64,000 nt of DNA, taken from contig CAVSPA010000016.1 in assembly GCA_963729715.1 (NCBI GenBank), positions 1 to 64,000 on the forward strand, read 5' to 3'. Below, piece by piece: positions 9,602 to 19,918 of this stretch; the first letter of the stretch is position 1; every line of letters begins with the position of its first letter. This DNA comes from an uncultured delta proteobacterium (lineage in GTDB: Bacteria > Desulfobacterota > Syntrophia > Syntrophales > UBA2185). A program made the position numbers and the translations under genes. Below the pieces are notes generated by a model that had not been told where the DNA came from, did not search any database, and was given only the letters and a program-made list of their open reading frames with translations.

Positions 9602-12600
9602 TTACTTCAAATGATATATAGGATGGTCCTTCCCAAAATCTATGATGTGGGGTGTCTGGCTGTGGCCGATTTCCCTGGAGATTGCCGAAGTCTTCTGTTT
9701 TGAGTATGCACCCAGTTCCACTATACTCACCTCCCCATCATGATTCGTATCGGCGACACGTTTGTCGTTCAGTCCGTCCAGCAGCACATGTGTGAACAGC
9801 CCATTGCCTCTGTATCCATCCATGGCGGCCTGTTTGTCACTCGCCGATGCATAAATATGAAGCCCCATCTTCTTTGCAAGTACTGACATCCGGGCGTCAT
9901 ATAGACCGGATATGATATAGTCCACACCGCCTGCATGGCACGTGTCGAAGATAAACAACTGACTAAGGGATTTTATCTTCTTGGATATTTCCACGATTTC
10001 ATTGGAGCTGATCATATTGTTCCCATTTATTTGGCCGTCGTAGTCATGGGTAAGCATATAATATTGGTTCTGTAAAAGAAGCCCGTGTCCCGCTACAAAG
10101 AGGATGAAACTGTCCGGGGGCTTCATTGTTTTGGAAAATTCATCGATCTTATTCGCAATGTTTTTCTTGATCGCCATGCCGTCGGTCAGCAGCGCGTAGT
10201 GGATATTCCGGGGCTTATATATTGTCGCGGATTGTGCCTTGAGTTTCCCCTCCAGTTCTGCCGCATCCTTTACAGCGTATTTCAGATTGACAGTACCGTC
10301 TTTATACCGGTCGATACCAACGGCAAGGATATAGAGATGAGGGTCTTCACGTTTTACTTTTGAATTGAAGCTGATCGTCTTCATAAAACTCTGAACGGTA
10401 TTGCTTCTATTGAACGCAGAAACGCTCACCTCGTTCTCCCCGGGAACTGGTTCTATCTCTCCACAGTCCTCCAAGACATCTCCTTTGGCTTTGCTTGATG
10501 TCGGAGCGGAATCAATTTTGCCTTTAACAGTTATGCTTCGCATATCCTCGTAAATAGTCTTACTGTCCAATGCTGCCAATTGAGTTTTATCAGCAGTGGA
10601 TCTTACAATCTCTTTATAATATCCGTCAGACTGGACAAGCTTTCCGTTATGGAATAGCCTGACCTCTCCGATACCGCAACCGGTACTGTTGACCTTGTAG
10701 CAGACCTTTATCTTCGGCTGGTCCGTGCCAGTAAGCCGGGAAGTGAATTCCGTGACAGGCGGTGGGCACGCGATAGCGTTGTCGAGCGTGACCGTCTCCA
10801 GTCCGCTGATGTCTTCCCCTTTCAGTCTTGCTGCCACTATATCGGGACGGTAAAAGACATCATAGAATTGATCAATGCCATAGACCTGTCTTTCTTTTCT
10901 CACATTGATATGCTTATGCGCGTTTTGAGAGGCGTTGTAGTAACCATCGGGAAGCATTACAACCCACTCACCGTCAGCAAACATAAAGAATTTGGCAATG
11001 GACGCACCACTGGCAGCATCATACAGGTAGACCTGACTTCCTTCGCCGACACCCGTCCTCGATGATAATGATGCAGCAACTATATATCGCCCGTCCTTAG
11101 TCAATCTGAAATTTCCAGCTCCTGATTCAAGGGGGATGACCTTAATTAGTTTCCTTGATGGAATGTCCAGCAGCACCAATTTGTTTCCCCACTCCACAAG
11201 AATGCGGCGACTGTCCGCTGAAAAAGTGCAATGAGGCGTAAGATCAAAAAATACGGATGTTGTGTAAATTATGGTATCATTACGCGATTCGTCCGTGACC
11301 CTCTTCTCATGAGGGGCAATAAGAACGTCCTGAAAAGAACGAAAAAGAAAACCTACTTGCTTGCCTGTTGCAACTTCTCTCAAGTCAAGGTTGCGCAAAT
11401 TGTCCAAACCAAAGAACAGATATCTTCCATCGGGAGAAAAAGCGGGCAGGTGGGGAGATGATCCCCCACGATGCATATCGTACTTAGCGACTTCCTTGCC
11501 TGTCGCTATATCAAATAGCGTACAGGTCTTATCATGGTTAACAGTAAGGAAGTGCTTATTGTCAGGAGAAAAAATGGTACTCGAAAACAATCCGCCAGGC
11601 GCGTTAGAGGTATAAGACTGGACGACACGCCCTCTGTCAAGATTCCACAGGTCAATCCTGTTGCCGCCGATTCTTTGAAAACTCCTCATGTCAATTCTGT
11701 TCTCGCCGCCGGCGAGGGCGTAACGGCCATCTTGTGAAAACGAAACGGAGCTTCCCAACACATTCGAAACTTTTTTCAGTACCTTGCCTGTAGAAATCTG
11801 CCAAATATAGACGGAACCACCCACTCTGGAAAGCACCTTGTCGCCGTCGTCCATGATCACCATGTCCTTCATCGGCGCTCCCATTAGATCTCTCGGCAGG
11901 TCCGTAAATGTCGTTTGCAGTGTTCCTGAGGTCAGGTCCCAAAGCCGAGGCGGGCTTAACCGGCTTGTGGATAACAGACGATTGCCATCCGGCGTAAAGG
12001 CAATATCAGCAATATAATCCAGGTTTCTCTGGATCACTCTTACAACCTGCCCTGTTGAAATCTTCCACATTACAATACCAAAATCGTCTCTACATCCGGC
12101 AACAATATACCGGCCGTCGTTTGAAAGGGCGACGGCTGTCACCCCGCCTGATGGGGTACGGAATGTCTTTATTTCATTTCCCGATTTCACATCCCACAGC
12201 TTTACGACACCATTCCAACTTCCTGATACGATATGCTTCCCGTCCTGTGAAAAGGCCAATGAAAATATGCAGTCGTCCCGAACTCTCAATCTCCGCAACT
12301 CCTTGCCCGTTGAGACATCCCATATAATTATATCGGGGTCTTTTGTATCGCACATTACGTAAGCTCTTGTTGTCCTCGTCTGCGTCCCTGTCGATACGAG
12401 GTAACGGAGATCAGGAGAAAAAACAACCGCATTAATGCCGGCTGAGTGACCAACAAACGTTCTTATTACTCTGCCGGTGGATAGGTCCCACATCTTGATA
12501 GTCTTGTCGGAACCGTCGCCTCCCGTCACAGCGTACCTTGAATCCGGCGAAAAGGCGGCAGTAACAACAGCTCCCTGATGGCCGCCAAGACGCCATATCT

Positions 12601-13079
12601 CTTTCCCTGTTGCATAATCATACAACGTTGCATGATCAATAGCCGGATTCAAATAGTAACGTAAGTCTTTGGAGATGAATCTGGCAGCTTCGACCCCTCC
12701 GAGCCCCATCTTTTTTATCACTTCTCCGCTGCTGATGCTCAGAAGCTTGCCATCCACAATTACATCAGAGCTATCAGAAGCAAATTGGGCGTTGAAACCA
12801 TAGAAAGTCCTGAACTCTCTGCCGGATTCCACATCCCAGATCTTCGCATTACCATTGCCCGTGGCTAACAAGAAACGTCCGTCGGACGAAAACTCTACGG
12901 CGTTTATCTCTGGTTGAGGGCCGGCTTGCATGAATATCGCTATCGATGATTGAGATGCATCTCTTACGGTGGGAAAATCCGGCGTAGATTGATAAAGAAA
13001 AGCCTCTTCTTTTGCTGAGCACACTGAGATGGCAATTAATTAAGATCACCGGAATTAGACTGAATGTCGATTTTTTCAT
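9602..13079 (-). CDS. WD40-repeat protein with C-terminal caspase-like (peptidase C14) domain; signal peptide out of frame, main ORF 9602..13024
   Basis: Many FSPDG...WD repeats; His-Cys dyad motifs VAGHG and FDTCHAG; ATG at 13079 with a GGAGG RBS is displaced by a 4-bp duplication at ~13034-13043. Confidence 0.88.
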
Positions 13080-13141: not shown

Positions 13142-14668
13142 TTAATCTTTGCTATCATCCAACTCAACCGGGTCAACGGACATTTCGGGTGATTGCAGCG
13201 ATCGGGTGGACCTGTCTATATTTTCCGGAGCAACGATATCTGCGCCTGTCGAGGCTCCGAGTTCTTTGAACTTCCGCGCCGTAACAAGCACTCTCCCTTC
13301 AAGAGAGCCGACGGCTTTGTTGTAAAGCTCCACCGTCTGATCGAGACTCTTTCCCATCTTGAAAAAATGTTCGGCCAATACACCGATGCGATCATACAGC
13401 GTCTTGGCTAAACTGCTTATCTCCTCTGCATTCTCAGCAATCTTCTCCTGACGCCAGCCGTAGGCAACTGCCTTCAGAAGCGCGATCAAGGTGGTAGGCG
13501 TTGCCAGGATAACACGCTGATCGACGCCGAACTCGATCAAGGCCGGGTCATGTTCGAGGGCCGCGCTGAAGAATGTTTCGCCGGGCAGAAACAAAACGGC
13601 AAACTCGGGAGTAGGCTTGAATTGGTCCCAGTATGTCTTCGCCCCCAGGTTCGTGAGGTGCGTGCGTATCTGCCGCGCGTGTTCCTTTAATTTTACGACA
13701 CGGCCAGCCTCATCCTGACATTCCAGCGATTCGAGGTAAGCCTGCAGCGGGGCCTTTGCATCCACCACGATGTTCTTCATATTGGGAAGCTTGATGATCA
13801 TATCCGGCCTGAGGCGACCGTCTTCAGTTGTAACAGATTCCTGCTGCAGGAAATCGCAGTATTCGAGCATGCCGGCAATTTCCACAACCCTCTTCAATTG
13901 GATTTCACCCCAGCGCCCGCGCACGGTAGGGGCACGGAGGGCCCTGGCCAAGTTCGTCGTCTCCAACTGAAGCAGGTTCTGGGTAGAGGCGAGCGATTTT
14001 ATCTGCTCCGTGAGAGAAACATAGGAGGTAGTGCGTGCATGCTCGATTTCCATGATCTTGTTATCGACTTTTTCCAGAGACTCCTTCAAGGGTTTAACGA
14101 GATCATCAATGGCCTTCTGCCTTGTCATGAGATCGGTTCTGGCGGAATCCTGAAATCTTTCCAGGGTCTCCCTTGCCAGTTCGAGAAAGGATTGATTGTT
14201 GCTCTTGAGTGCATCTGAAGAGAGCGCCTTGAATGCATCGGACAATTTCTCCCGCGCCTCATCAAGAAGCTTGAGCTTTTCCTCTCCCGCCTTTCGTTCT
14301 TCTACAAGTCGCGTCTCCAGTTCTGAGAGCTTTATCTTTAGATCCGCATTCTCTGCCTCTATCTCCGTGAGCCTCTTTTCCTTGAGCAGCATTGCAGACT
14401 CCATCTCAGGTATGCGTGTGCACTTCTCCTCCACAGCTGAGCGTCTGTCCGACTGAAGTTTAACCTCCTCGCGGAGACCGGCAACCTCTTCCTTTGTCTT
14501 ATCGAGAGAAGACTGCAATTCCTGCACTTGCGTCTCCCTGTTTCTGAGTCGCTCCGCGAGAGTGGCTCCTTTCGATCTCAGCAGTAGATAAACGCCAACT
14601 GCACCCAGACAGGCCCCCGGCAGGAAAAAAATAACTTCGGTAAGGTAATTCATAAGGCAGATCCCCAA
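13142..14668 (-). CDS. rmuC: DNA recombination protein RmuC
   Basis: N-terminal TM helix and coiled coil, then [31 protein letters not shown]. Confidence 0.95.
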
Positions 14669-14810
14669 TTCATATCGTTTTGGTTCAAGGAAGAGAATTT
14701 AACAAACAAAGGGCATAACATTATTTCTTACTGTTCTATTTACCATCTCTTGCGATTTATCTCAATGTAAAGGAAGACAGGGTAGTGGGTCAGTTTCATT
14801 TTATTAGCTA

Positions 14811-14839
14811 TTGACATTGCTTGACCGCTTTAGTATGCT
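14811..14839 (+). promoter_or_regulatory. sigma70 promoter with operator-like spacer; probably yields a leaderless mRNA
   Basis: TTGACA-ttgcttgaccgctttag(17)-TATGCT, with the ATG 6 nt downstream and no SD. Confidence 0.7.
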
Positions 14840-14845
14840 CAGGCC

Positions 14846-15076
14846 ATGAAGAAAACTAAAAGACCACGAGACATAAGCCAACTTGCCGCTTCCATCGTTA
14901 AAGAAGCTACAGGCGAAGATCAACCAAAACAACCCACCAAAGAAAAGAATCCTGCCGCCGTCGCCCTTGGTCGTTTAGGTGGATTAAAGGGCGGGCCTGC
15001 CAGATCAAAAAATCTCACAAAGAAAAAACGTATTGAAATCGCCCGCAAAGCCGCACAGGCAAGGTGGGGAAAATAA
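14846..15076 (+). CDS. Small basic IS-associated protein (often annotated histone H1-like or RNA-binding); probable regulator
   Basis: KRPRD..QLA, KNPAAVALGRLGGLKGG.AR, R.EIARKAA.ARW; this motif is also seen N-terminal to P63C-domain proteins. Confidence 0.75.
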   Translation: MKKTKRPRDISQLAASIVKEATGEDQPKQPTKEKNPAAVALGRLGGLKGGPARSKNLTKKKRIEIARKAAQARWGK

Positions 15077-15079
15077 TGC

Positions 15080-15108
15080 TTGACACTTGGTTTAGTTATA
15101 ACTAAACT
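15080..15108 (+). promoter_or_regulatory. Promoter-like sequence with a perfect 18-bp palindrome upstream of the toxin-like gene
   Basis: TTGACA at 15080; palindrome GTTTAGTTATAACTAAAC at 15090-15107. Confidence 0.65.
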
Positions 15109-15597
15109 ATGCAGAACAAAGTTTCTTATGAAATTACTGAGCTTGAAACTTCACAACACCCCAGACGCGGCGTTGCCTTTCTTATTTCTGGTAATAAAAG
15201 AGTTACGGCAAAGGATGCCTTTGATGGATTGAATCAAAATACCAGAAGTTTTTTCAGCACAAGATTTGATCAATGGGTACAAGGTAAACAAAATGATAAA
15301 TGGTATCATGGATGGTCGAGGTCAGAATTTGGAGGCATATATACGAATTGTTATGTTTTCAAATCTAAAGAGAAAAAATTAGAACAAAGGCTGTATGGTT
15401 TTTTATGTCATCCAATAGCATCAAACCAAAGATACCTTGCTTGCATATTGATAAATCATGCCGTGAAAAAACAACATGAAACGGATACAGTGAACTTAAA
15501 AGACGTAGAAGAAATTAGAACGAACATTGATGCACGAAAAGCTGTTAATGCTTTTTTTGAGGAGATCAAAGATGCATTGGACGGAACGAAATACTAA
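15109..15597 (+). CDS. Putative RelE/HigB/Gp49-like type II toxin
   Basis: C-terminal RLYGF...CILINHAVKKQHETD resembles the Gp49/RelE pattern; overlaps the downstream HTH gene. Confidence 0.55.
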   Translation: MQNKVSYEITELETSQHPRRGVAFLISGNKRVTAKDAFDGLNQNTRSFFSTRFDQWVQGKQNDKWYHGWSRSEFGGIYTNCYVFKSKEKKLEQRLYGFLCHPIASNQRYLACILINHAVKKQHETDTVNLKDVEEIRTNIDARKAVNAFFEEIKDALDGTKY

Positions 15598-16057
15598 AGA
15601 TTATATATTTAGGATTGCGGTAGATTTTATCGATCAATTGGAAAAGAACATGGGCGATATTACTCAAGATAAACTTGCCACTATTCTTGGAAAAACCAAA
15701 GGATATATTTCTCAAGTAATAAATCATCCCGGAAATATTACACTGAACACTATGGTAAAGTTTGCCAGGGCGCTTGGGATGAAAATATCGATAGTAGCTT
15801 ATTCGGATGGTGACCCGGAAAATAGAAGGGGTCCCATTGATTCAGAGATATTTAAAATTTGTTGGGAAAGACAAGGCAAGCCCAGTGATTTTTGGTCTAT
15901 TAAAGAGGCTGATCAAACAGCGAAGACCGCAAATAGCAACGCAGGTAATATATATATCTATCCAAAGGCATTTAAAGACATCATCATATCAAATACAGCC
16001 ACTCCGGAAAGTTTAGCATTTCAAACCAAAGAGACATTGAGTGTTGCAGTAAAATAG
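15572..16057 (+). CDS. XRE-family HTH protein (HigA-like antitoxin) with long C-terminal extension
   Basis: ITQDKLATILGKTKGYISQVINHPGNITLNTMVKFARALG; GAGGAG RBS before ATG 15572. Confidence 0.8.
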   Translation: MHWTERNTKDYIFRIAVDFIDQLEKNMGDITQDKLATILGKTKGYISQVINHPGNITLNTMVKFARALGMKISIVAYSDGDPENRRGPIDSEIFKICWERQGKPSDFWSIKEADQTAKTANSNAGNIYIYPKAFKDIIISNTATPESLAFQTKETLSVAVK

Positions 16058-16069
16058 GAGGATAATGCT

Positions 16070-16315
16070 ATGTCAGAAACATCAGGTTATAATTTCAACC
16101 ACAAAGAGATTGCCGAAGCATTAATTAAATATCAAGGTCTGCATGAAGGTCAATGGCAGATAAGCGTTGAATTTGGAATATCCGCCGCCAACATCCAAAC
16201 CGGAGAAAATCAATATTCTCCCGCCGCGATCGTGCCTATTATTAATATCGGCATTGTGAAAGTCCCCCAAGAAATGCCCTTGTCTGTTGATGCATCAAAG
16301 GTAAATCCAGCATAA
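16070..16315 (+). CDS. Small hypothetical protein, third gene of the TA-like module
   Basis: AGGAGG RBS; 12 nt after the HTH gene; 81 aa with an alpha/beta pattern. Confidence 0.75.
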   Translation: MSETSGYNFNHKEIAEALIKYQGLHEGQWQISVEFGISAANIQTGENQYSPAAIVPIINIGIVKVPQEMPLSVDASKVNPA

Positions 16316-16356
16316 TTTGGCGCAAACTATTTTTTTGATTCCATGTGATATTTTAC

Positions 16357-16385
16357 TTGACAATGCTTGAGCGCTCAAGTATAAA
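16357..16385 (+). promoter_or_regulatory. Transposase sigma70 promoter with a palindromic operator in the spacer
   Basis: TTGACA-atgcttgagcgctcaag(17)-TATAAA; palindrome CTTGAGCGCTCAAG at 16366-16379. Confidence 0.8.
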
Positions 16386-16418
16386 GGTCAGTAAGGAACA
16401 TACTTGAGGGGGCACACC

Positions 16419-17237
16419 ATGAACAAACTAAGCGTAGAAAAAAGGGTACAAGTTATAAGCTGCCTTGTTGAGGGAAACAGCATCCGCGCCACAGTACGCA
16501 TGACAGGAGTTGCAAAGAATACGATTGTCAAGCTACTGGCAGAAGTAGGCGAAGCCTGTTCAAACTATCAAGACAAGGTTCTTAAGAATCTACCTTGCAA
16601 GAATATTCAGTGTGATGAAATCTGGTCTTTCTGCTATGCGAAAGAAAAGAATGTGCCGAAAGATAAACGCGGCAAGTTTGGATATGGTGATGTTTGGACA
16701 TGGACAGCCATTTGTGCTGATACAAAACTTATTCCCTCATGGTTTATTGGAAATCGTGATACTGCTACCGCAAAGGCTTTCATCAATGACTTAGCCTCTC
16801 GCCTTGCTCACAGAATCCAATTAACAACGGACGGCCATAGACCTTATTTAACTGCGGTTGAAGATGCTTTTGCCGGAGACATAGACTATGCAATGCTTCA
16901 CAAGCTGTACGAATCGACCCAAGAACAAACTCGCTACAGTCCGGCAAAATGCAATGGCGCGGAGAAAAAATTAATAACAGGATTTCCCGACCCCAAGAAG
17001 GTTTCGACAAGTTATGCGGAAAGGCAGAATCTAACAATGAGAATGGGAATGAGAAGATTTACAAGACTTACAAATGCCTTTTCAAAAAAGGTAGAGAACC
17101 TTGCCCATGCTGTGTCTCTGCATTTCATGTACTATAACTTTTGCAGAATTCATCAGACGTTAAGGGTAACCCCTGCAATGGAAGCGGGCATTACCGATCA
17201 TGTATGGAACATTAAAGATATTATAGAGTTAGTCTAA
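16419..17237 (+). CDS. IS1-family DDE transposase (HTH + DDE, no zinc ribbon)
   Basis: HTH VEGNSIRATVRMTGVAKNT; QCDEIW, TTDGH and TSYAERQN DDE motifs; RLTNAFSKK; TPAMEAG. Confidence 0.93.
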   Translation: MNKLSVEKRVQVISCLVEGNSIRATVRMTGVAKNTIVKLLAEVGEACSNYQDKVLKNLPCKNIQCDEIWSFCYAKEKNVPKDKRGKFGYGDVWTWTAICADTKLIPSWFIGNRDTATAKAFINDLASRLAHRIQLTTDGHRPYLTAVEDAFAGDIDYAMLHKLYESTQEQTRYSPAKCNGAEKKLITGFPDPKKVSTSYAERQNLTMRMGMRRFTRLTNAFSKKVENLAHAVSLHFMYYNFCRIHQTLRVTPAMEAGITDHVWNIKDIIELV

Positions 17238-17251
17238 TAGTAAGATTTTTA

Positions 17252-17279
17252 TTGACACGATATAGCAAAGGAGTATCAT
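17252..17279 (+). promoter_or_regulatory. Putative promoter for the hairpin plus tRNA-like RNA
   Basis: TTGACA-16 nt-TATCAT with no downstream + strand ORF. Confidence 0.6.
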
Positions 17280-17366
17280 CAAATCAGCGAGAAGGTGAAA
17301 TAGAATCAAGAACCGGAACGGGGCGCGTGGCACTAGGGCAAGTCACAAACCCCGTTCTCATTTTGT

Positions 17367-17438
17367 GCCCCCGTAGCTTAATGGATAAAGCACCTTCTCG
17401 CTAAGTTGGTTATCTTGGTTCGAATCCTAGCGGGGGCA
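17367..17438 (+). tRNA. Atypical tRNA-like gene: Arg-type body, anticodon GCT, three U-U mismatches, no encoded CCA
   Basis: GCCCCCG TA GCTT AATGGATA AAGC A CCTTC TCGCTAA GTTGG TTAT CTTGG TTCGAAT CCTAG CGGGGGC A. Confidence 0.75.
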
Positions 17439-17447
17439 CACCTATGT

Positions 17448-17972
17448 TTAACGAAGCTCAGCCCAACCGGTTAACGTTGGGTTGCCATTATTGGGTAAAA
17501 CAAGATAAGCCGAACCAGGAGGAACGTCAAAGGCAATTTGACTTTGCCCTGAGGCAGAAGACGATGCTGCACTGCATAGATTTCCATTAACCAGTGCGGC
17601 TACACCCGTAGCTCTTATAGACACAATCATTGTCCTACTTGTCGTGTTGTAATATGTCACGCGTAGCGCTCTGCTTGCTGTGACGTTTTGCCAGGTCTGT
17701 AGATGCTCAATTTGTGCTTTTTGTTCAGGAGGTTTGGCGGAATCGCCCTGTGCTGATGGTTGATCTTTCTTTGGGTGTTCTTCATTATATTTATCAATTG
17801 CCCTAACCCATAAAGCGGTCGCTATAATTAATACGACAACAAAAGTAATACAAACGAACACTGCCCATCCTCTATATGGATGGTTTAGAAAAAATCTTCC
17901 ATAAAACCACGCAAGCCAATCAACTGGATTCAAAAATTTTCTCCATTGCACAGGGTTAAAATTTCTTCTCAT
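17448..17972 (-). CDS. Single-pass membrane protein with a C-terminal beta domain resembling phage tail-fibre C-termini
   Basis: TM segment WAVFVCITFVVVLIIATALW, a polar linker, then QTWQNVTASRA...Y.NTT...VPPGSAY.V...W.ELR. Confidence 0.6.
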   Translation of the reverse strand: MRRNFNPVQWRKFLNPVDWLAWFYGRFFLNHPYRGWAVFVCITFVVVLIIATALWVRAIDKYNEEHPKKDQPSAQGDSAKPPEQKAQIEHLQTWQNVTASRALRVTYYNTTSRTMIVSIRATGVAALVNGNLCSAASSSASGQSQIAFDVPPGSAYLVLPNNGNPTLTGWAELR

Positions 17973-18027
17973 AATTTCACCCCCGTGTCAACCTTCCAAA
18001 CTGACCCACTACCGAAGACAGGTCTCA

Positions 18028-18111
18028 TTCAATCCGGCAGCGAGCGCTTGGGGAATATTATTATTCCTTAAGGATCGAAGATCCTCCGCAGTTTACTGCG
18101 GAGAGCCTCAA
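18028..18111. repeat. REP-like palindromic repeat, copy 1
   Basis: 18064-18111 matches 46809-46856 at 42/48; hairpin CTCCGCAGT-TT-ACTGCGGAG. Confidence 0.75.
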
Positions 18112-18199
18112 TTTAGCATTGCGGAATTGGGATATATTGAATAATATAATTGTCGGCTGATGCAGCGCTGGTTCAATTACATAGCGAGATATTTGTGAT

Positions 18200-19918
18200 A
18201 TGAAGAATTCAGAAATCGCCAGAGTGTTTCACGATATGGCCGACCTTCTCGAACTGAAGGGGGAAAACGTATTTAAGATACGTGCCTACAGGCGTGCCGC
18301 CCAGGTTATCGAGCACCTTCCCAAAGAGATGGCAGTCATGCTGGAACAGGGAGAGGACTTTCAGAAAATACCCGGCGTGGGTGACGCAATAGCAAAAAAG
18401 AGCACTGAACTGATAGAGACGGGAAAGCTCGGGGCCTACGAAAGCCTCAAACACGAATTTCCCGAAGGCATAACGCGGCTTCTGGAGATTCCCGGCATCG
18501 GCCCCAAGACGGCGCACCGTCTTTCGTCGGAGCTGAAGATAACATCCGCAGACCAACTCGAAGAAGCGATCAAGGAGGGAAAGGTTGCCGATCTCTTCCG
18601 GATGGGGGACAAGACCGCTCAAAACATACTCCACAAGATTGAGGCCATGCGCCGCAAGGATCAGCGCATCCCTATCGGTCAAGCCCTGCCTATAGTCGAA
18701 GACATCTTAAATAGTCTCAGCAAACTCCCGGGGGTGAAGAACATGATCCCCGCCGGGAGCCTCCGGCGCTTCCGGGAAACAGTCGGGGATATAGATATCA
18801 TGGGGACAGCCGACAATCCGGAGAATGTGATCAATAAATTTGTCGCCCTCCCCGTTGTAAACGAAGTCCTCGCGAAAGGGCCGACCAAGGCGAGCGTCAT
18901 CCTCTCACCCGGCCTCCAGGCGGATTTAAGGATGGTGGAGCATGACTCGTTCGGATCTCTTCTGCAATATTTTACGGGGAGCAAACAGCACAACATCACC
19001 CTGCGGACGAAGTGCCAGAAGAAGGGGCTCAAGCTCAGCGAATACGGAATCACGGATGTCGCGCATGACAAGCTGGAAAAATTCACCACGGAAGAGGCCT
19101 TCTACAAGCGCCTCGGGATGCAATACATCCCTCCGGAGATCAGGGAGGATCAGGGGGAAATCGAACTGTCGGAAAAACACGAAATCCCCCGCCTCGTCGA
19201 TCTCCGGGATATTAAGGGAGACTTTCATGCACACTCGAAGTGGAGCGACGGCAACAATACGATCGAAGAAATGGCCATGGCTGCTAAGAATGAAGGTTAC
19301 AAGTATATGGCGATTACCGACCATTCCAAAGGACTGGGCATTGCGCGCGGCCTGACGGAAGAACGTCTGAAGGAACAGATTCAGGAAATTCGCAGGCTCA
19401 ATCAGAAATTAAAAGGCTTTCGCATCCTCTCCGGCATGGAGGTTGATATAAGAGCGGACGGTTCCATCGATATGCCTGACAGCATGTTGGCGGAGCTTGA
19501 TTGCGTCATCGGCGCAATTCACTCATCTTTCAATCAGAGCGAGGAGCGCGTCACCCGGCGCATTATAAGGGCGATTGAAAATCCCCAAATTGATATCATT
19601 GCACACCCGACGAGCCGCCTCATAGGCGAGCGGGAGTCGACAGCCGTCGATATGGAAGCCGTTTTCAAGGCAGCAGTGAAACACAAAAAGGCGCTGGAGA
19701 TCAACGCCATGCCGAGCCGCCTCGACCTCAAGGACATCCACATCCACCGCGCCCGGGAGCTGGGCATTATGCTTGCCATCGGAACGGATTCCCACATCGC
19801 AGGCCAGTTGAAACTGATGCGCTTCGGTACCGGCCTCGCCCGCCGCGGCGGCTGCGAGCCCAGGCATATCCTGAACTGCCTCTCTCTCGATAAGGTTCTG
19901 GCTTACTTCAGAAGATGA
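18200..19918 (+). CDS. polX: DNA polymerase X / PHP exonuclease fusion
   Basis: HhH motifs IPGVG and IPGIGPK; AGSLRR; GDID and DLR catalytic Asp; YFTGSK; PHP motifs HAH, DHS, GTDSH. Confidence 0.96.
   Translation: MKNSEIARVFHDMADLLELKGENVFKIRAYRRAAQVIEHLPKEMAVMLEQGEDFQKIPGVGDAIAKKSTELIETGKLGAYESLKHEFPEGITRLLEIPGIGPKTAHRLSSELKITSADQLEEAIKEGKVADLFRMGDKTAQNILHKIEAMRRKDQRIPIGQALPIVEDILNSLSKLPGVKNMIPAGSLRRFRETVGDIDIMGTADNPENVINKFVALPVVNEVLAKGPTKASVILSPGLQADLRMVEHDSFGSLLQYFTGSKQHNITLRTKCQKKGLKLSEYGITDVAHDKLEKFTTEEAFYKRLGMQYIPPEIREDQGEIELSEKHEIPRLVDLRDIKGDFHAHSKWSDGNNTIEEMAMAAKNEGYKYMAITDHSKGLGIARGLTEERLKEQIQEIRRLNQKLKGFRILSGMEVDIRADGSIDMPDSMLAELDCVIGAIHSSFNQSEERVTRRIIRAIENPQIDIIAHPTSRLIGERESTAVDMEAVFKAAVKHKKALEINAMPSRLDLKDIHIHRARELGIMLAIGTDSHIAGQLKLMRFGTGLARRGGCEPRHILNCLSLDKVLAYFRR

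Follow-up and report, generated by a model that had tools for sequence, protein, structure and literature searches.

Insertion sequences (IS) of the IS1 family carry the end consensus GGnnnTG and generate target duplications of 8-9 bp. For the ISMhu11 subgroup of this family, sizes of up to 4.6 kb are given in ISfinder, which implies the presence of passengers; no paper naming the group was found in a literature search. In other families, transporter IS (tIS) have been defined as elements of IS-like architecture with passenger genes inside their inverted repeats, and the available part of the source assigns these to the IS1595 and IS66 families (10.1101/2021.05.26.445724). Tn7-like transposons with defence cargo are described in the available text of Benler et al. 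2021 (PMC8649781), and the accessible part of a study of the Tn3 family reads its toxin-antitoxin pairs as part of the transposition module (PMC7157771). Here we describe an element of 3233 bp in a 64,000-nucleotide (nt) stretch of contig CAVSPA010000016.1 (assembly GCA_963729715.1), hereafter the window, from an uncultured delta proteobacterium of the order Syntrophales. The element is very probably a cargo-carrying IS of the IS1 family. It has a two-gene chassis and two cargo slots, and it belongs to a lineage whose cargo is biased towards toxin-antitoxin and defence functions and in which off-code tRNA-like genes recur.

With the IS1 family the element shares a DDE transposase whose close relatives are named IS1 by the sources, GGTAGTG ends and an 8-bp duplication. 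It differs from classical IS1 in its size (about 3.2 kb compared with 0.77 kb, with 2.4 kb of passenger DNA here), in its single transposase open reading frame (ORF), and in a separate conserved basic protein of 76 amino acids. Its organisation is that by which tIS are defined: the ends enclose four passenger ORFs and a tRNA-like gene, and the target duplication borders the unit as a whole. In comparison with the tIS of the IS1595 and IS66 families, two slots are arranged here around a fixed two-gene chassis, and across the lineage the cargo is dominated by toxin-antitoxin and defence genes. Variable cargo rich in defence or toxin-antitoxin genes is common to this lineage and, as far as the available texts describe them, to the Tn7-like and Tn3-family transposons. 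These are large multi-gene machines, however (TnsABCD in Tn7-like transposons, TnpA/TnpR with res in Tn3), whereas the present element is of a 2-4-kb type with a single DDE transposase. A literature search on IS1 with passenger, toxin-antitoxin or defence cargo found no description of this lineage.

The inverted ends are complementary at 16 of 16 positions by sequence reading and by repeat search, both start with GGTAGTG, and the octamer GAAGACAG is present on both sides (Table 1). Perfect 16-bp terminal inverted repeats and a perfect 8-bp target duplication had been claimed in an earlier note on this DNA, and both claims stand, as does its placement of the insertion between divergently oriented rmuC and polX, both of them DNA-repair genes. 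The span given there, 14773..18021, is right as a whole but takes in both target copies, because the octamers sit at 14773-14780 and 18014-18021; the element proper is confined to 14781-18013. The 16-mer end, allowing up to two mismatches, was found at just these two sites in the whole 3.76-Mb genome. To search for empty sites, the whole rmuC-to-polX stretch was compared with 30 relatives. The element is missing between rmuC and polX in nine of ten same-genus genomes, where the two flanks are about 6-240 nt apart on one contig; the tenth genome has the polX part alone, at a contig end. In one same-genus genome the empty site reads TCTCAATGTAAAGGAAGGCAAGTCTCATTGAATTTAGC (core AAGGAAGGCAAGTCTCATTG), with no element and a single octamer, GAAGGCAA, that is related to the target duplication.

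Perfect ends and duplication, an intact DDE transposase and empty sites in relatives support the claim of the earlier note that this is a recent and intact transposon. The interval 14781-18013 is very probably one intact cargo-carrying IS of the single-ORF IS1 branch that was recently inserted at rmuC-polX. An alternative is that the 3.2-kb unit is composite, either a minimal IS with neighbouring DNA or two nested or fused elements. Such arrangements have parallels among relatives, in that loci L013 and L069 hold two transposase copies each and L051 and L067 hold nested IS of other families, but a composite origin here is very improbable: the duplication flanks all 3233 bp, the empty sites of relatives are without all of the element, the locus has one transposase gene, just two ends (up to five mismatches to a 19-nt consensus) occur in the 13 kb around the element, and no internal end sequence or second duplication was seen inside 14781-18013.

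Table 1 Features of the cargo element and its flanks (window positions).
Feature	Position	Strand	Basis
rmuC, left flank	13142-14668	-	RmuC match, 346 bits
Left target-site duplication copy GAAGACAG	14773-14780	.	Read in sequence
IS1-type cargo element, 3233 bp	14781-18013		Perfect 16-bp inverted ends and 8-bp target duplication
Left terminal inverted repeat GGTAGTGGGTCAGTTT	14781-14796	+	Repeat search, 16/16 complementary
Promoter-like site before ORF A	14811-14839	+	TTGACA, 17 nt, TATGCT; 10/12 matches
ORF A, 76-amino-acid basic protein, conserved chassis gene	14846-15076	+	ORF clustering
Promoter-like site directly before ORF B	15080-15108	+	TTGACA, 17 nt, TAAACT; 10/12 matches
ORF B, 162 amino acids, HigB/RelE-fold toxin candidate	15109-15597	+	Predicted structure
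ORF C, 161 amino acids, HTH_3 (Xre-type), antitoxin-like	15572-16057	+	Pfam HTH_3, 30.2 bits
ORF D, 81 amino acids, conserved small protein, third module gene	16070-16315	+	Homologue clusters
Putative transposase promoter/operator	16357-16385	+	TTGACA, palindrome GCTTGAGCGCTCAAG, TATAAA
Transposase, 272 amino acids, single ORF, IS1 family	16419-17237	+	Open frame; NCBIfam IS1 model, names of relatives
Best promoter-like site of element	17252-17279	+	TTGACA, 16 nt, TATCAT; 11/12 matches
tRNA-like gene, 73 nt, anticodon GCU	17367-17439	+	ARAGORN; Rfam
ORF E, 174 amino acids, orphan membrane protein	17448-17972	-	One predicted membrane helix, read from sequence
Right terminal inverted repeat, exact reverse complement of GGTAGTGGGTCAGTTT	17998-18013	-	Repeat search
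Right target-site duplication copy GAAGACAG	18014-18021	.	Read in sequence
polX, right flank	18200-19918	+	PolX/PHP polymerase match

Searches with the transposase returned at least 8000 matches, the closest being 70-93% identical among the matches listed, and many of the close relatives are named 'IS1 family transposase' by JGI or NCBI. The frame is open, and at least 152 of the 153 aligned relatives share D66, D138 and E201 with the window's protein, in agreement with the intact transposase of the earlier note. The relatives also conserve TDG..Y and ERxN..R stretches, which we take to be features of IS1 InsB. The GGTAGTG ends fit the family consensus GGnnnTG, and the 8-bp duplication fits the family range. 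There is no insA/insB' organisation with a -1 frameshift. Because the transposase is one ORF and ORF A is without a match to an InsA-type family in Pfam or NCBIfam, the element fits only the single-ORF branch of IS1.

To place the element among its relatives, transposase scans were carried out on one-genome-per-species contigs and on metagenome contigs, from which the best 79 and 80 loci were kept; at least 593 and at least 595 relatives, respectively, were confirmed. Viral contigs gave 70 further loci, and relatives were present in 18 records of a plasmid collection. The lineage includes Acidobacteriota, Nitrospirota, Planctomycetota, Actinomycetota, Chloroflexota and Pseudomonadota in addition to the viral contigs. 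Elements were delimited by the 19-nt end consensus, with up to five mismatches, on either side of the transposase; at 12 genome loci and 37 metagenome loci no end was present within the examined DNA. In total 112 complete elements were delimited (67 from genomes, 43 from metagenomes, one from the same genus and the window's own), and these were divided into a genome set of 68 and another set of 44. Their lengths range from 1336 to 7090 bp, just two being shorter than 1.5 kb. A perfect target duplication of 8 bp accompanies 96 of the 112, with 7 bp in two, 9 bp in one and none in 13. Two identical copies, L036 and L037, are present in one genome.

Several points weigh against the reading of the window element as an active, intact member of the IS1 family. 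The transposase scored 57.7 bits with the NCBIfam IS1 model NF033558 (cut-off 100) and 21.3 bits with Pfam DDE_Tnp_IS1 (cut-off 24.1), and because these hidden Markov model scores are below the curated cut-offs, the placement rests on source names, end sequence and duplication length. The left ends of L042 and L114 are poor, so 2 of the 112 boundaries are doubtful. Finally, the genome contains just one copy of the 3233-bp element, and this one insertion is all that demonstrates its activity in the host.

In L006, L055, L076 and L114 the end of the element is followed, at a distance of 56-68 nt, by a canonical host tRNA gene that has the same orientation (L006:6121-6196, L055:5905-5980, L076:6818-6893 and L114:2877-2958). 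Four such cases exceed our chance expectation, which hints at a target preference or at a route of tRNA-gene capture.

Clustering of all ORFs from the 68 genome-set elements identified two universal families, the transposase, which is present in all, and a small basic protein of about 80 amino acids, which is present in 63. With few exceptions the gene encoding this protein lies on the + strand, and its start is some 65 nt from the left end. The protein ends in a strongly conserved C-terminal motif, GRLGGLKGGKARAxKLSxxxRxEIAKKAAxARW, which is also found at the start of P63C-domain cargo proteins. With the same ends on 112 elements, the basic ORF in 63/68 and the transposase in all, the fixed chassis proposed in the earlier note was recovered. 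In the window the basic protein is ORF A, whose C-terminal motif is given as GRLGGLKGGxARxxxLTxxxRxEIAxKAAxARW and for which no family was found in Pfam or NCBIfam. Databases tag its relatives 'histone H1', and one plasmid record annotates the basic ORF in this way within a unit that has no mobile-element annotation. The regulator role given to it in the earlier note is putative.

Hexamers of the sequence TTGACA are present on the + strand at 14811, 15080, 16357 and 17252, each preceding a gene, and the four promoter-like sites counted previously are all there. Three of the four are the best promoter-like sites of the region; a generic promoter scan was overall at chance level, with 9 sites found and 8.0 +/- 2.8 expected. 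The site before ORF A contains a half-palindromic GCTTGA box and is located 6 nt before the start codon. The transposase promoter of the window is followed by a 33-nt leader with a GAGGGGG ribosome-binding site. Across the lineage, the pattern TTGACA-N-GCTTGA..TCAAGC-ATAAT occurs within 60 nt before the transposase start in 59 of the 112 elements. Just 6-7 nt separate the -10 hexamer from the transposase ATG in 30 of these 59, a spacing that suggests a leaderless mRNA, which would shield the transposase from cargo read-through. A related GCTTGA box precedes the basic-protein gene in many elements, that of the window included, and the GCTTGA...TCAAGC boxes are presumably operators.

In the mechanism that we propose, the DDE transposase would bind the ends and move everything between them. 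The transposase and basic-protein genes would be driven by similar promoters with a GCTTGA...TCAAGC box, and this box would probably be autoregulatory, acting through the helix-turn-helix (HTH) of the transposase or through the basic protein. A further sequence, TTCAAACTGA(C), was observed 8-15 nt ahead of the -35 box of the transposase promoter in L007, L011, L013, L016, L031, L038, L055, L066, L067 and others. It is the inner part of the right end, and the window has a weak version of it (gcgCAAACTAt, near 16325). This sequence could be a site at which the transposase binds internally, or what is left of a former end.

The two slots around the transposase vary in length among the 112 elements, the upstream slot (left end to transposase start) from 436 to 2919 bp and the downstream slot (transposase stop to right end) from 18 to 4046 bp. 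The same-genus element L093:1084-4167 has the same ends and a basic protein of 81 amino acids, with different genes in both slots; its transposase is frameshifted and shares 84% DNA identity with that of the window. These lengths and this sister element bear out the two variable cargo slots suggested in the earlier note.

The content of the slots was then assigned to families. For the genome set, 150 of the 152 listed ORFs of at least 100 amino acids were scanned, one duplicate and one overlapping ORF being omitted. Pfam families were present in 50 of the 150, and toxin-antitoxin, restriction and defence-linked domains dominate. The commonest was P63C (9), followed by HTH with Peptidase_M78 (8), a ClpP-like SDH protease (6) and AAA_21 ATPase (4). 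The remainder include GmrSD, NYN, HicB, Phd/YefM, PemK/MazF, SocA/Panacea and Gp49 with HTH_3, together with SecB, Bro-N, a ParA-like ATPase, DUF4760, DUF6941 and one OMP decarboxylase. Three genome-set cargo ORFs are transposases of other IS families and represent nested elements, with L051 and L067 among their hosts. In the metagenome set, 40 of 107 cargo ORFs had Pfam families, among them an MmeI-type enzyme, an EcoRI methylase with a GmrSD_N/HNH nuclease, ThsB-TIR with SLATT and a STAND NTPase, SieB, Fic with a Clp protease, an HD dGTPase, PemK and Gp49. PADLOC was applied to 38 hand-picked ORFs of sister elements, and its models matched 16 of these 38. The matches were Rosmer RmrA (E 1.7e-133) with RmrT, HEC-04 (5), HEC-06, HEC-09, dGTPase (E 1.6e-119), SoFic, type II and IIG restriction-modification, ThsB and PD-Lambda-2_B.

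Small IS are usually treated as transposase-only units; here a compact chassis moves defence and toxin-antitoxin genes, and the IS1 chassis may be an overlooked route by which defence genes spread between bacteria. The non-chassis DNA between the 19-bp ends could serve as a practical marker of candidate defence or addiction genes, and the cargo ORFs without a family (100/150 in the genome set and 67/107 in the metagenome set) are a ready list of candidates.

The window's own cargo had been described as five passenger ORFs and a tRNA-like gene. All of these are present, but the passengers number four because the basic ORF A is chassis and not cargo. ORFs B to D occupy the upstream slot, the tRNA-like gene and ORF E the downstream one. 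ORF B has 270 representative relatives, and an AlphaFold2 model of it from a 51-sequence alignment had a mean predicted local distance difference test score (pLDDT) of 93.8. When compared by VIA-align, the model resembled HigB of S. pneumoniae (6af4; Z 11.2, root-mean-square deviation (rmsd) 2.5, 106 residues aligned) and HigB1 of M. tuberculosis (7awk; Z 11.2, rmsd 3.4, 118 aligned). Over the solved structures of HigB1 (Rv1955; 7awk, 7nbu) and S. pneumoniae HigB (6af3, 6af4), Z was 10.7-11.2 with 105-119 residues aligned, at just 9-11% identity and with about 40 extra residues in ORF B. Other RelE, HigB, YoeB and ParE toxins gave Z of 4.8-6.9 and unrelated chains 3.7 or less, so that 23 rows related to RelE, HigB, YoeB or ParE outrank the first unrelated row (Z 3.7). 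The Foldseek top ten for ORF B were all HigB toxins, with RelE appearing from ranks 18-21, at weak E-values of 0.011-0.058. ORF B is therefore a candidate toxin of predicted HigB/RelE fold.

The first 26 nt of ORF C are shared with the end of ORF B, and ORF C has a C-terminal extension of about 85 amino acids. In addition to HTH_3, it gave weak NCBIfam matches to HipB and HigA, both below their cut-offs. A toxin gene upstream of an HTH (HigA-type) antitoxin gene is the order of HigB systems, and it is also that of the candidate toxin ORF B and the antitoxin-like ORF C; the predicted complex of the two proteins scored 0.29, with a mark of 0.32. In M. tuberculosis, HigB1-HigA1-SecB forms a toxin-antitoxin-chaperone system in which a third small gene follows the antitoxin gene. 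The order of ORFs B, C and D recalls this arrangement, although in its predicted model ORF D is without a detectable SecB-like fold. The ORF D family comprises 85 homologue clusters, none with a Pfam family, and its model had a pLDDT of 84; a homologue in L020 is located after a HicB antitoxin gene. Identification of ORF D as a SecB-like or DUF3467-like chaperone found no support in these tests: there was no fold match and no profile match to PDB sequences, and it had no BLAST match to the DUF3467 protein of L023.

The toxin-antitoxin reading and the broader expectation of defence cargo in this copy are weakened by a number of negative results. ORF B had no family in Pfam (E up to 10), NCBIfam, PHROGs or PADLOC; 51 members of its family had no Pfam family; there was no profile match to PDB sequences; and ORF B showed no BLAST likeness to Gp49 of L067. 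The model of ORF D had no match to a solved fold above Z 2.2 and no Foldseek match at E of 0.001 or less. For ORF E, a word-based search found no homologue but itself. With PADLOC-DB 2.0, only generic HTH and control-protein models matched the window's cargo, both in ORF C. The defence-like cargo proposed in the earlier note is accordingly supported for the lineage, by Pfam and PADLOC; in this copy, support extends just to the HigB-like toxin-antitoxin module.

In the proposed scheme, the ORF B toxin would most likely be a ribosome-dependent mRNA endonuclease, ORF C its HTH antitoxin and an autorepressor, and ORF D a conserved accessory protein. The three would work together in addiction or growth arrest, thereby stabilising the element, and phage infection may also be aborted by them. 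Toxin-antitoxin systems are able to abort phage infection, and in sister elements this slot is occupied by defence systems, either validated or candidate ones. It is accordingly possible, if less probable than not, that ORFs B to D are a dedicated abortive-infection defence that benefits the host; the module is without a PADLOC match, however, and toxin-antitoxin pairs of the Tn3 family are read as part of the transposition module in the available text (PMC7157771). We prefer a module that serves mainly the element. ORF E would be a membrane-anchored protein, for which superinfection exclusion is a guess. Its beta-rich C-terminal domain (residues 90-174) is remotely similar to phage tail-fibre C-termini (phrog_18834, E 9.9e-12), and a protein atlas placed it at 0.80 to viral hypothetical proteins, a weak lead.

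The tRNA-like gene noted earlier was called by both ARAGORN and Rfam at the position in Table 1, scoring 54.1 bits against the Rfam tRNA model RF00005 (gathering score 29). Although its anticodon is GCU, the predicted RNA has a variable region of 4 nt and no serine-type long arm, and is a class-I cloverleaf; the host tRNA-Ser(GCU) is 95 nt long, and the host has a full canonical tRNA set. The D-loop is of arginine type (GGAUA, A20) and the acceptor stem is identical to that of host tRNA-Arg(CCU). With the anticodon loop masked, the nearest host isotype is Arg, with a score of just 0.39. The anticodon stem has two U-U mismatches, C33 replaces the universal U, and no CCA is encoded, unlike in the host canonical tRNAs. 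The best promoter-like site of the element is located 87 nt before the gene. In the presumed leader (17285-17297) there is an 11-nt perfect complement to the anticodon arm, which 0/200 shuffles reached. When the putative precursor was folded at minimum energy, its acceptor, D and T stems were retained in a cloverleaf-like form and the leader-anticodon pairing was left unused. In the predicted fold of 17364-17442, three leader bases pair with three trailer bases to give an acceptor of 10 bp; this spans the discriminator position and could hinder normal end processing. The RNA is probably not an ordinary decoder. The tRNA 3' end and the transposase leader share a 19-nt direct repeat, which was considered as an old junction and dropped, since by our estimate its exact repeat of 11 nt is about what chance gives in 3.2 kb.

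ARAGORN detected tRNA-like genes inside 20 of the 112 elements (11/68 in the genome set and 9/44 in the other set), and a covariance model built from seven of them added one more (L156) and several in incomplete loci. Thirteen of the 20 are on the + strand, 65-339 nt before the transposase start; three, including that of the window, follow the transposase, and four are on the other strand. Class-I bodies with the GGAUA D-loop carry the anticodons GCU (3), ACU (4, two of them in incomplete loci), UGC, CGU or ACC. Among the class-II bodies, those that end in G73 have UAG (3), CAA (2) or UAU (1), and two that end in A73 have the ochre-reading UUA. In a crude but objective test, the anticodon loop was masked and the closest tRNA in the window's genome was taken as the isotype of each body; this agreed with the anticodon in 1 of 20 element-borne genes, compared with 13 of 17 flanking host tRNAs. 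When 15 class-I members were aligned, the acceptor, D and T stems were kept and 16 of the 19 predicted pairs showed compensatory changes; conservation of the anticodon stem was partial.

Irregular tRNAs of this kind have been reported before. In the available text of Mukai et al. 2017 (PMC5389517), allo-tRNAs and irregular tRNAs are found in soil and sediment bacteria, often beside toxin-antitoxin genes, with anticodons that misfit their bodies, including UAU, stop-reading and GCU. In that text some allo-tRNAs were shown, in E. coli, to insert Ser or Ala at other codons, several such tRNAs are inactive in translation, and one 'allo-tRNA UAU pseudogene' overlaps a transposon-related ORF; as far as the main text is available, it contains 'IS1' 0 times and 'transpos' twice. 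The element-borne off-code genes fit these allo-tRNAs and irregular tRNAs, as described there. The window's own differs from allo-tRNAs in structure, having a 7/5 acceptor/T arrangement without a long arm compared with 8/4 or 9/3 with a long arm. In this lineage the off-code tRNAs of the 2017 paper find a genomic home, and their function could be tested on a 3-kb clone.

Two readings of the gene were weighed. According to the first, it is a working off-code tRNA that is charged with a non-serine amino acid and misreads AGC/AGU, and that serves to poison, recode or regulate translation. The Rfam score, the strong promoter-like site of its own, the acceptor stem of tRNA-Arg(CCU), the recurrence of GCU/ACU in seven related tRNA-likes on other elements, the disagreement of body and anticodon, the compensatory changes in 16/19 stem pairs and the Ser/Ala insertion by some allo-tRNAs (available text of PMC5389517) are consistent with this; we nevertheless consider it unlikely, given the U-U mismatches and C33, the missing CCA, the low score to Arg and the inactivity of several such tRNAs in the same source. 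Nor does recoding of the transposase account for it. Among 121 conserved columns, no tRNA-bearing element has a substitution that its tRNA would correct, and no conserved transposase position needs recoding. A match between anticodons and transposase-enriched codons was not supported in the set examined: AGY codons are not in excess in the window's transposase (52nd percentile), and 12 others, one of them a UAU element, ranged from 0.08 to 0.92 against sets matched for GC content at third codon positions (GC3). In-frame stops, one to three each, were observed in 5 of 153 transposase genes (L058, L066, L124, L148 and L166), which are read as decaying copies, and a suppressor-type tRNA-like gene is carried by none of these five elements.

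According to the second reading, the gene is a decaying, functionless relic of a host tRNA captured with flanking DNA. The mismatched anticodon stem, C33 and the lack of CCA would be expected of such a relic, the four elements located 56-68 nt upstream of host tRNA genes favour capture, and the UAU pseudogene (available text of PMC5389517) offers a precedent. This too is improbable: the gene is just distantly similar to any tRNA of its own host (best score 0.39), compensatory changes preserve the acceptor, D and T stems in homologues on elements from different phyla, 20/112 elements carry such a gene, 13/20 on the + strand 65-339 nt before the transposase start, and the 11-nt leader complement was not reached in any of the 200 shuffles. 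An RNA that is probably not an ordinary decoder remains our description of the gene.

A wider proposal, which we offer as speculative and doubtful, is that this IS1 lineage is a natural vehicle of off-code tRNAs, which would be functional parts of the element that tune or poison host or phage translation. Each gene would have a promoter of its own for expression, close outside the gene for the transposase, and its anticodon arm would pair with flanking RNA or misread chosen codons. If true, the tRNA-like genes would be a new mobile device of defence or control that travels with toxin-antitoxin and defence cargo.

Perfect complements of 10-17 nt to the anticodon arm were also observed within 130 nt downstream of the irregular tRNA-likes of L135 (785-857, -), L119 (919-992), L147 (2911-2985, -), L061 (3413-3486, -) and L129 (3449-3522, -); in canonical flanking tRNAs such complements were 7 nt or less. 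At L121:209-365, two irregular tRNA-likes, UGC and ACU, both with an encoded CCA, are arranged in tandem directly upstream of the transposase gene and recall the polycistronic irregular tRNAs in the available text of Mukai et al. (PMC5389517). A cargo family of 240-262 amino acids without a Pfam or PADLOC match (L033:3591-4310, L055:3634-4386, L061:3943-4707 and L066:1683-2468, all on the - strand) adjoins a class-I off-code tRNA-like gene in three of its four occurrences, and the two may form a protein-RNA module.

Two further observations were made in the flanks of the window element. To its right, a stretch of about 75 nt (18039-18113) matches dozens of places in its own and same-genus genomes at 79-92% identity; it resembles a small interspersed repeat and is missing from the empty site of one relative. 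Beyond rmuC, an ORF of 1140 amino acids (9602-13024, -) contains many WD40-like repeats, and its C-terminal region appears caspase-like by eye.

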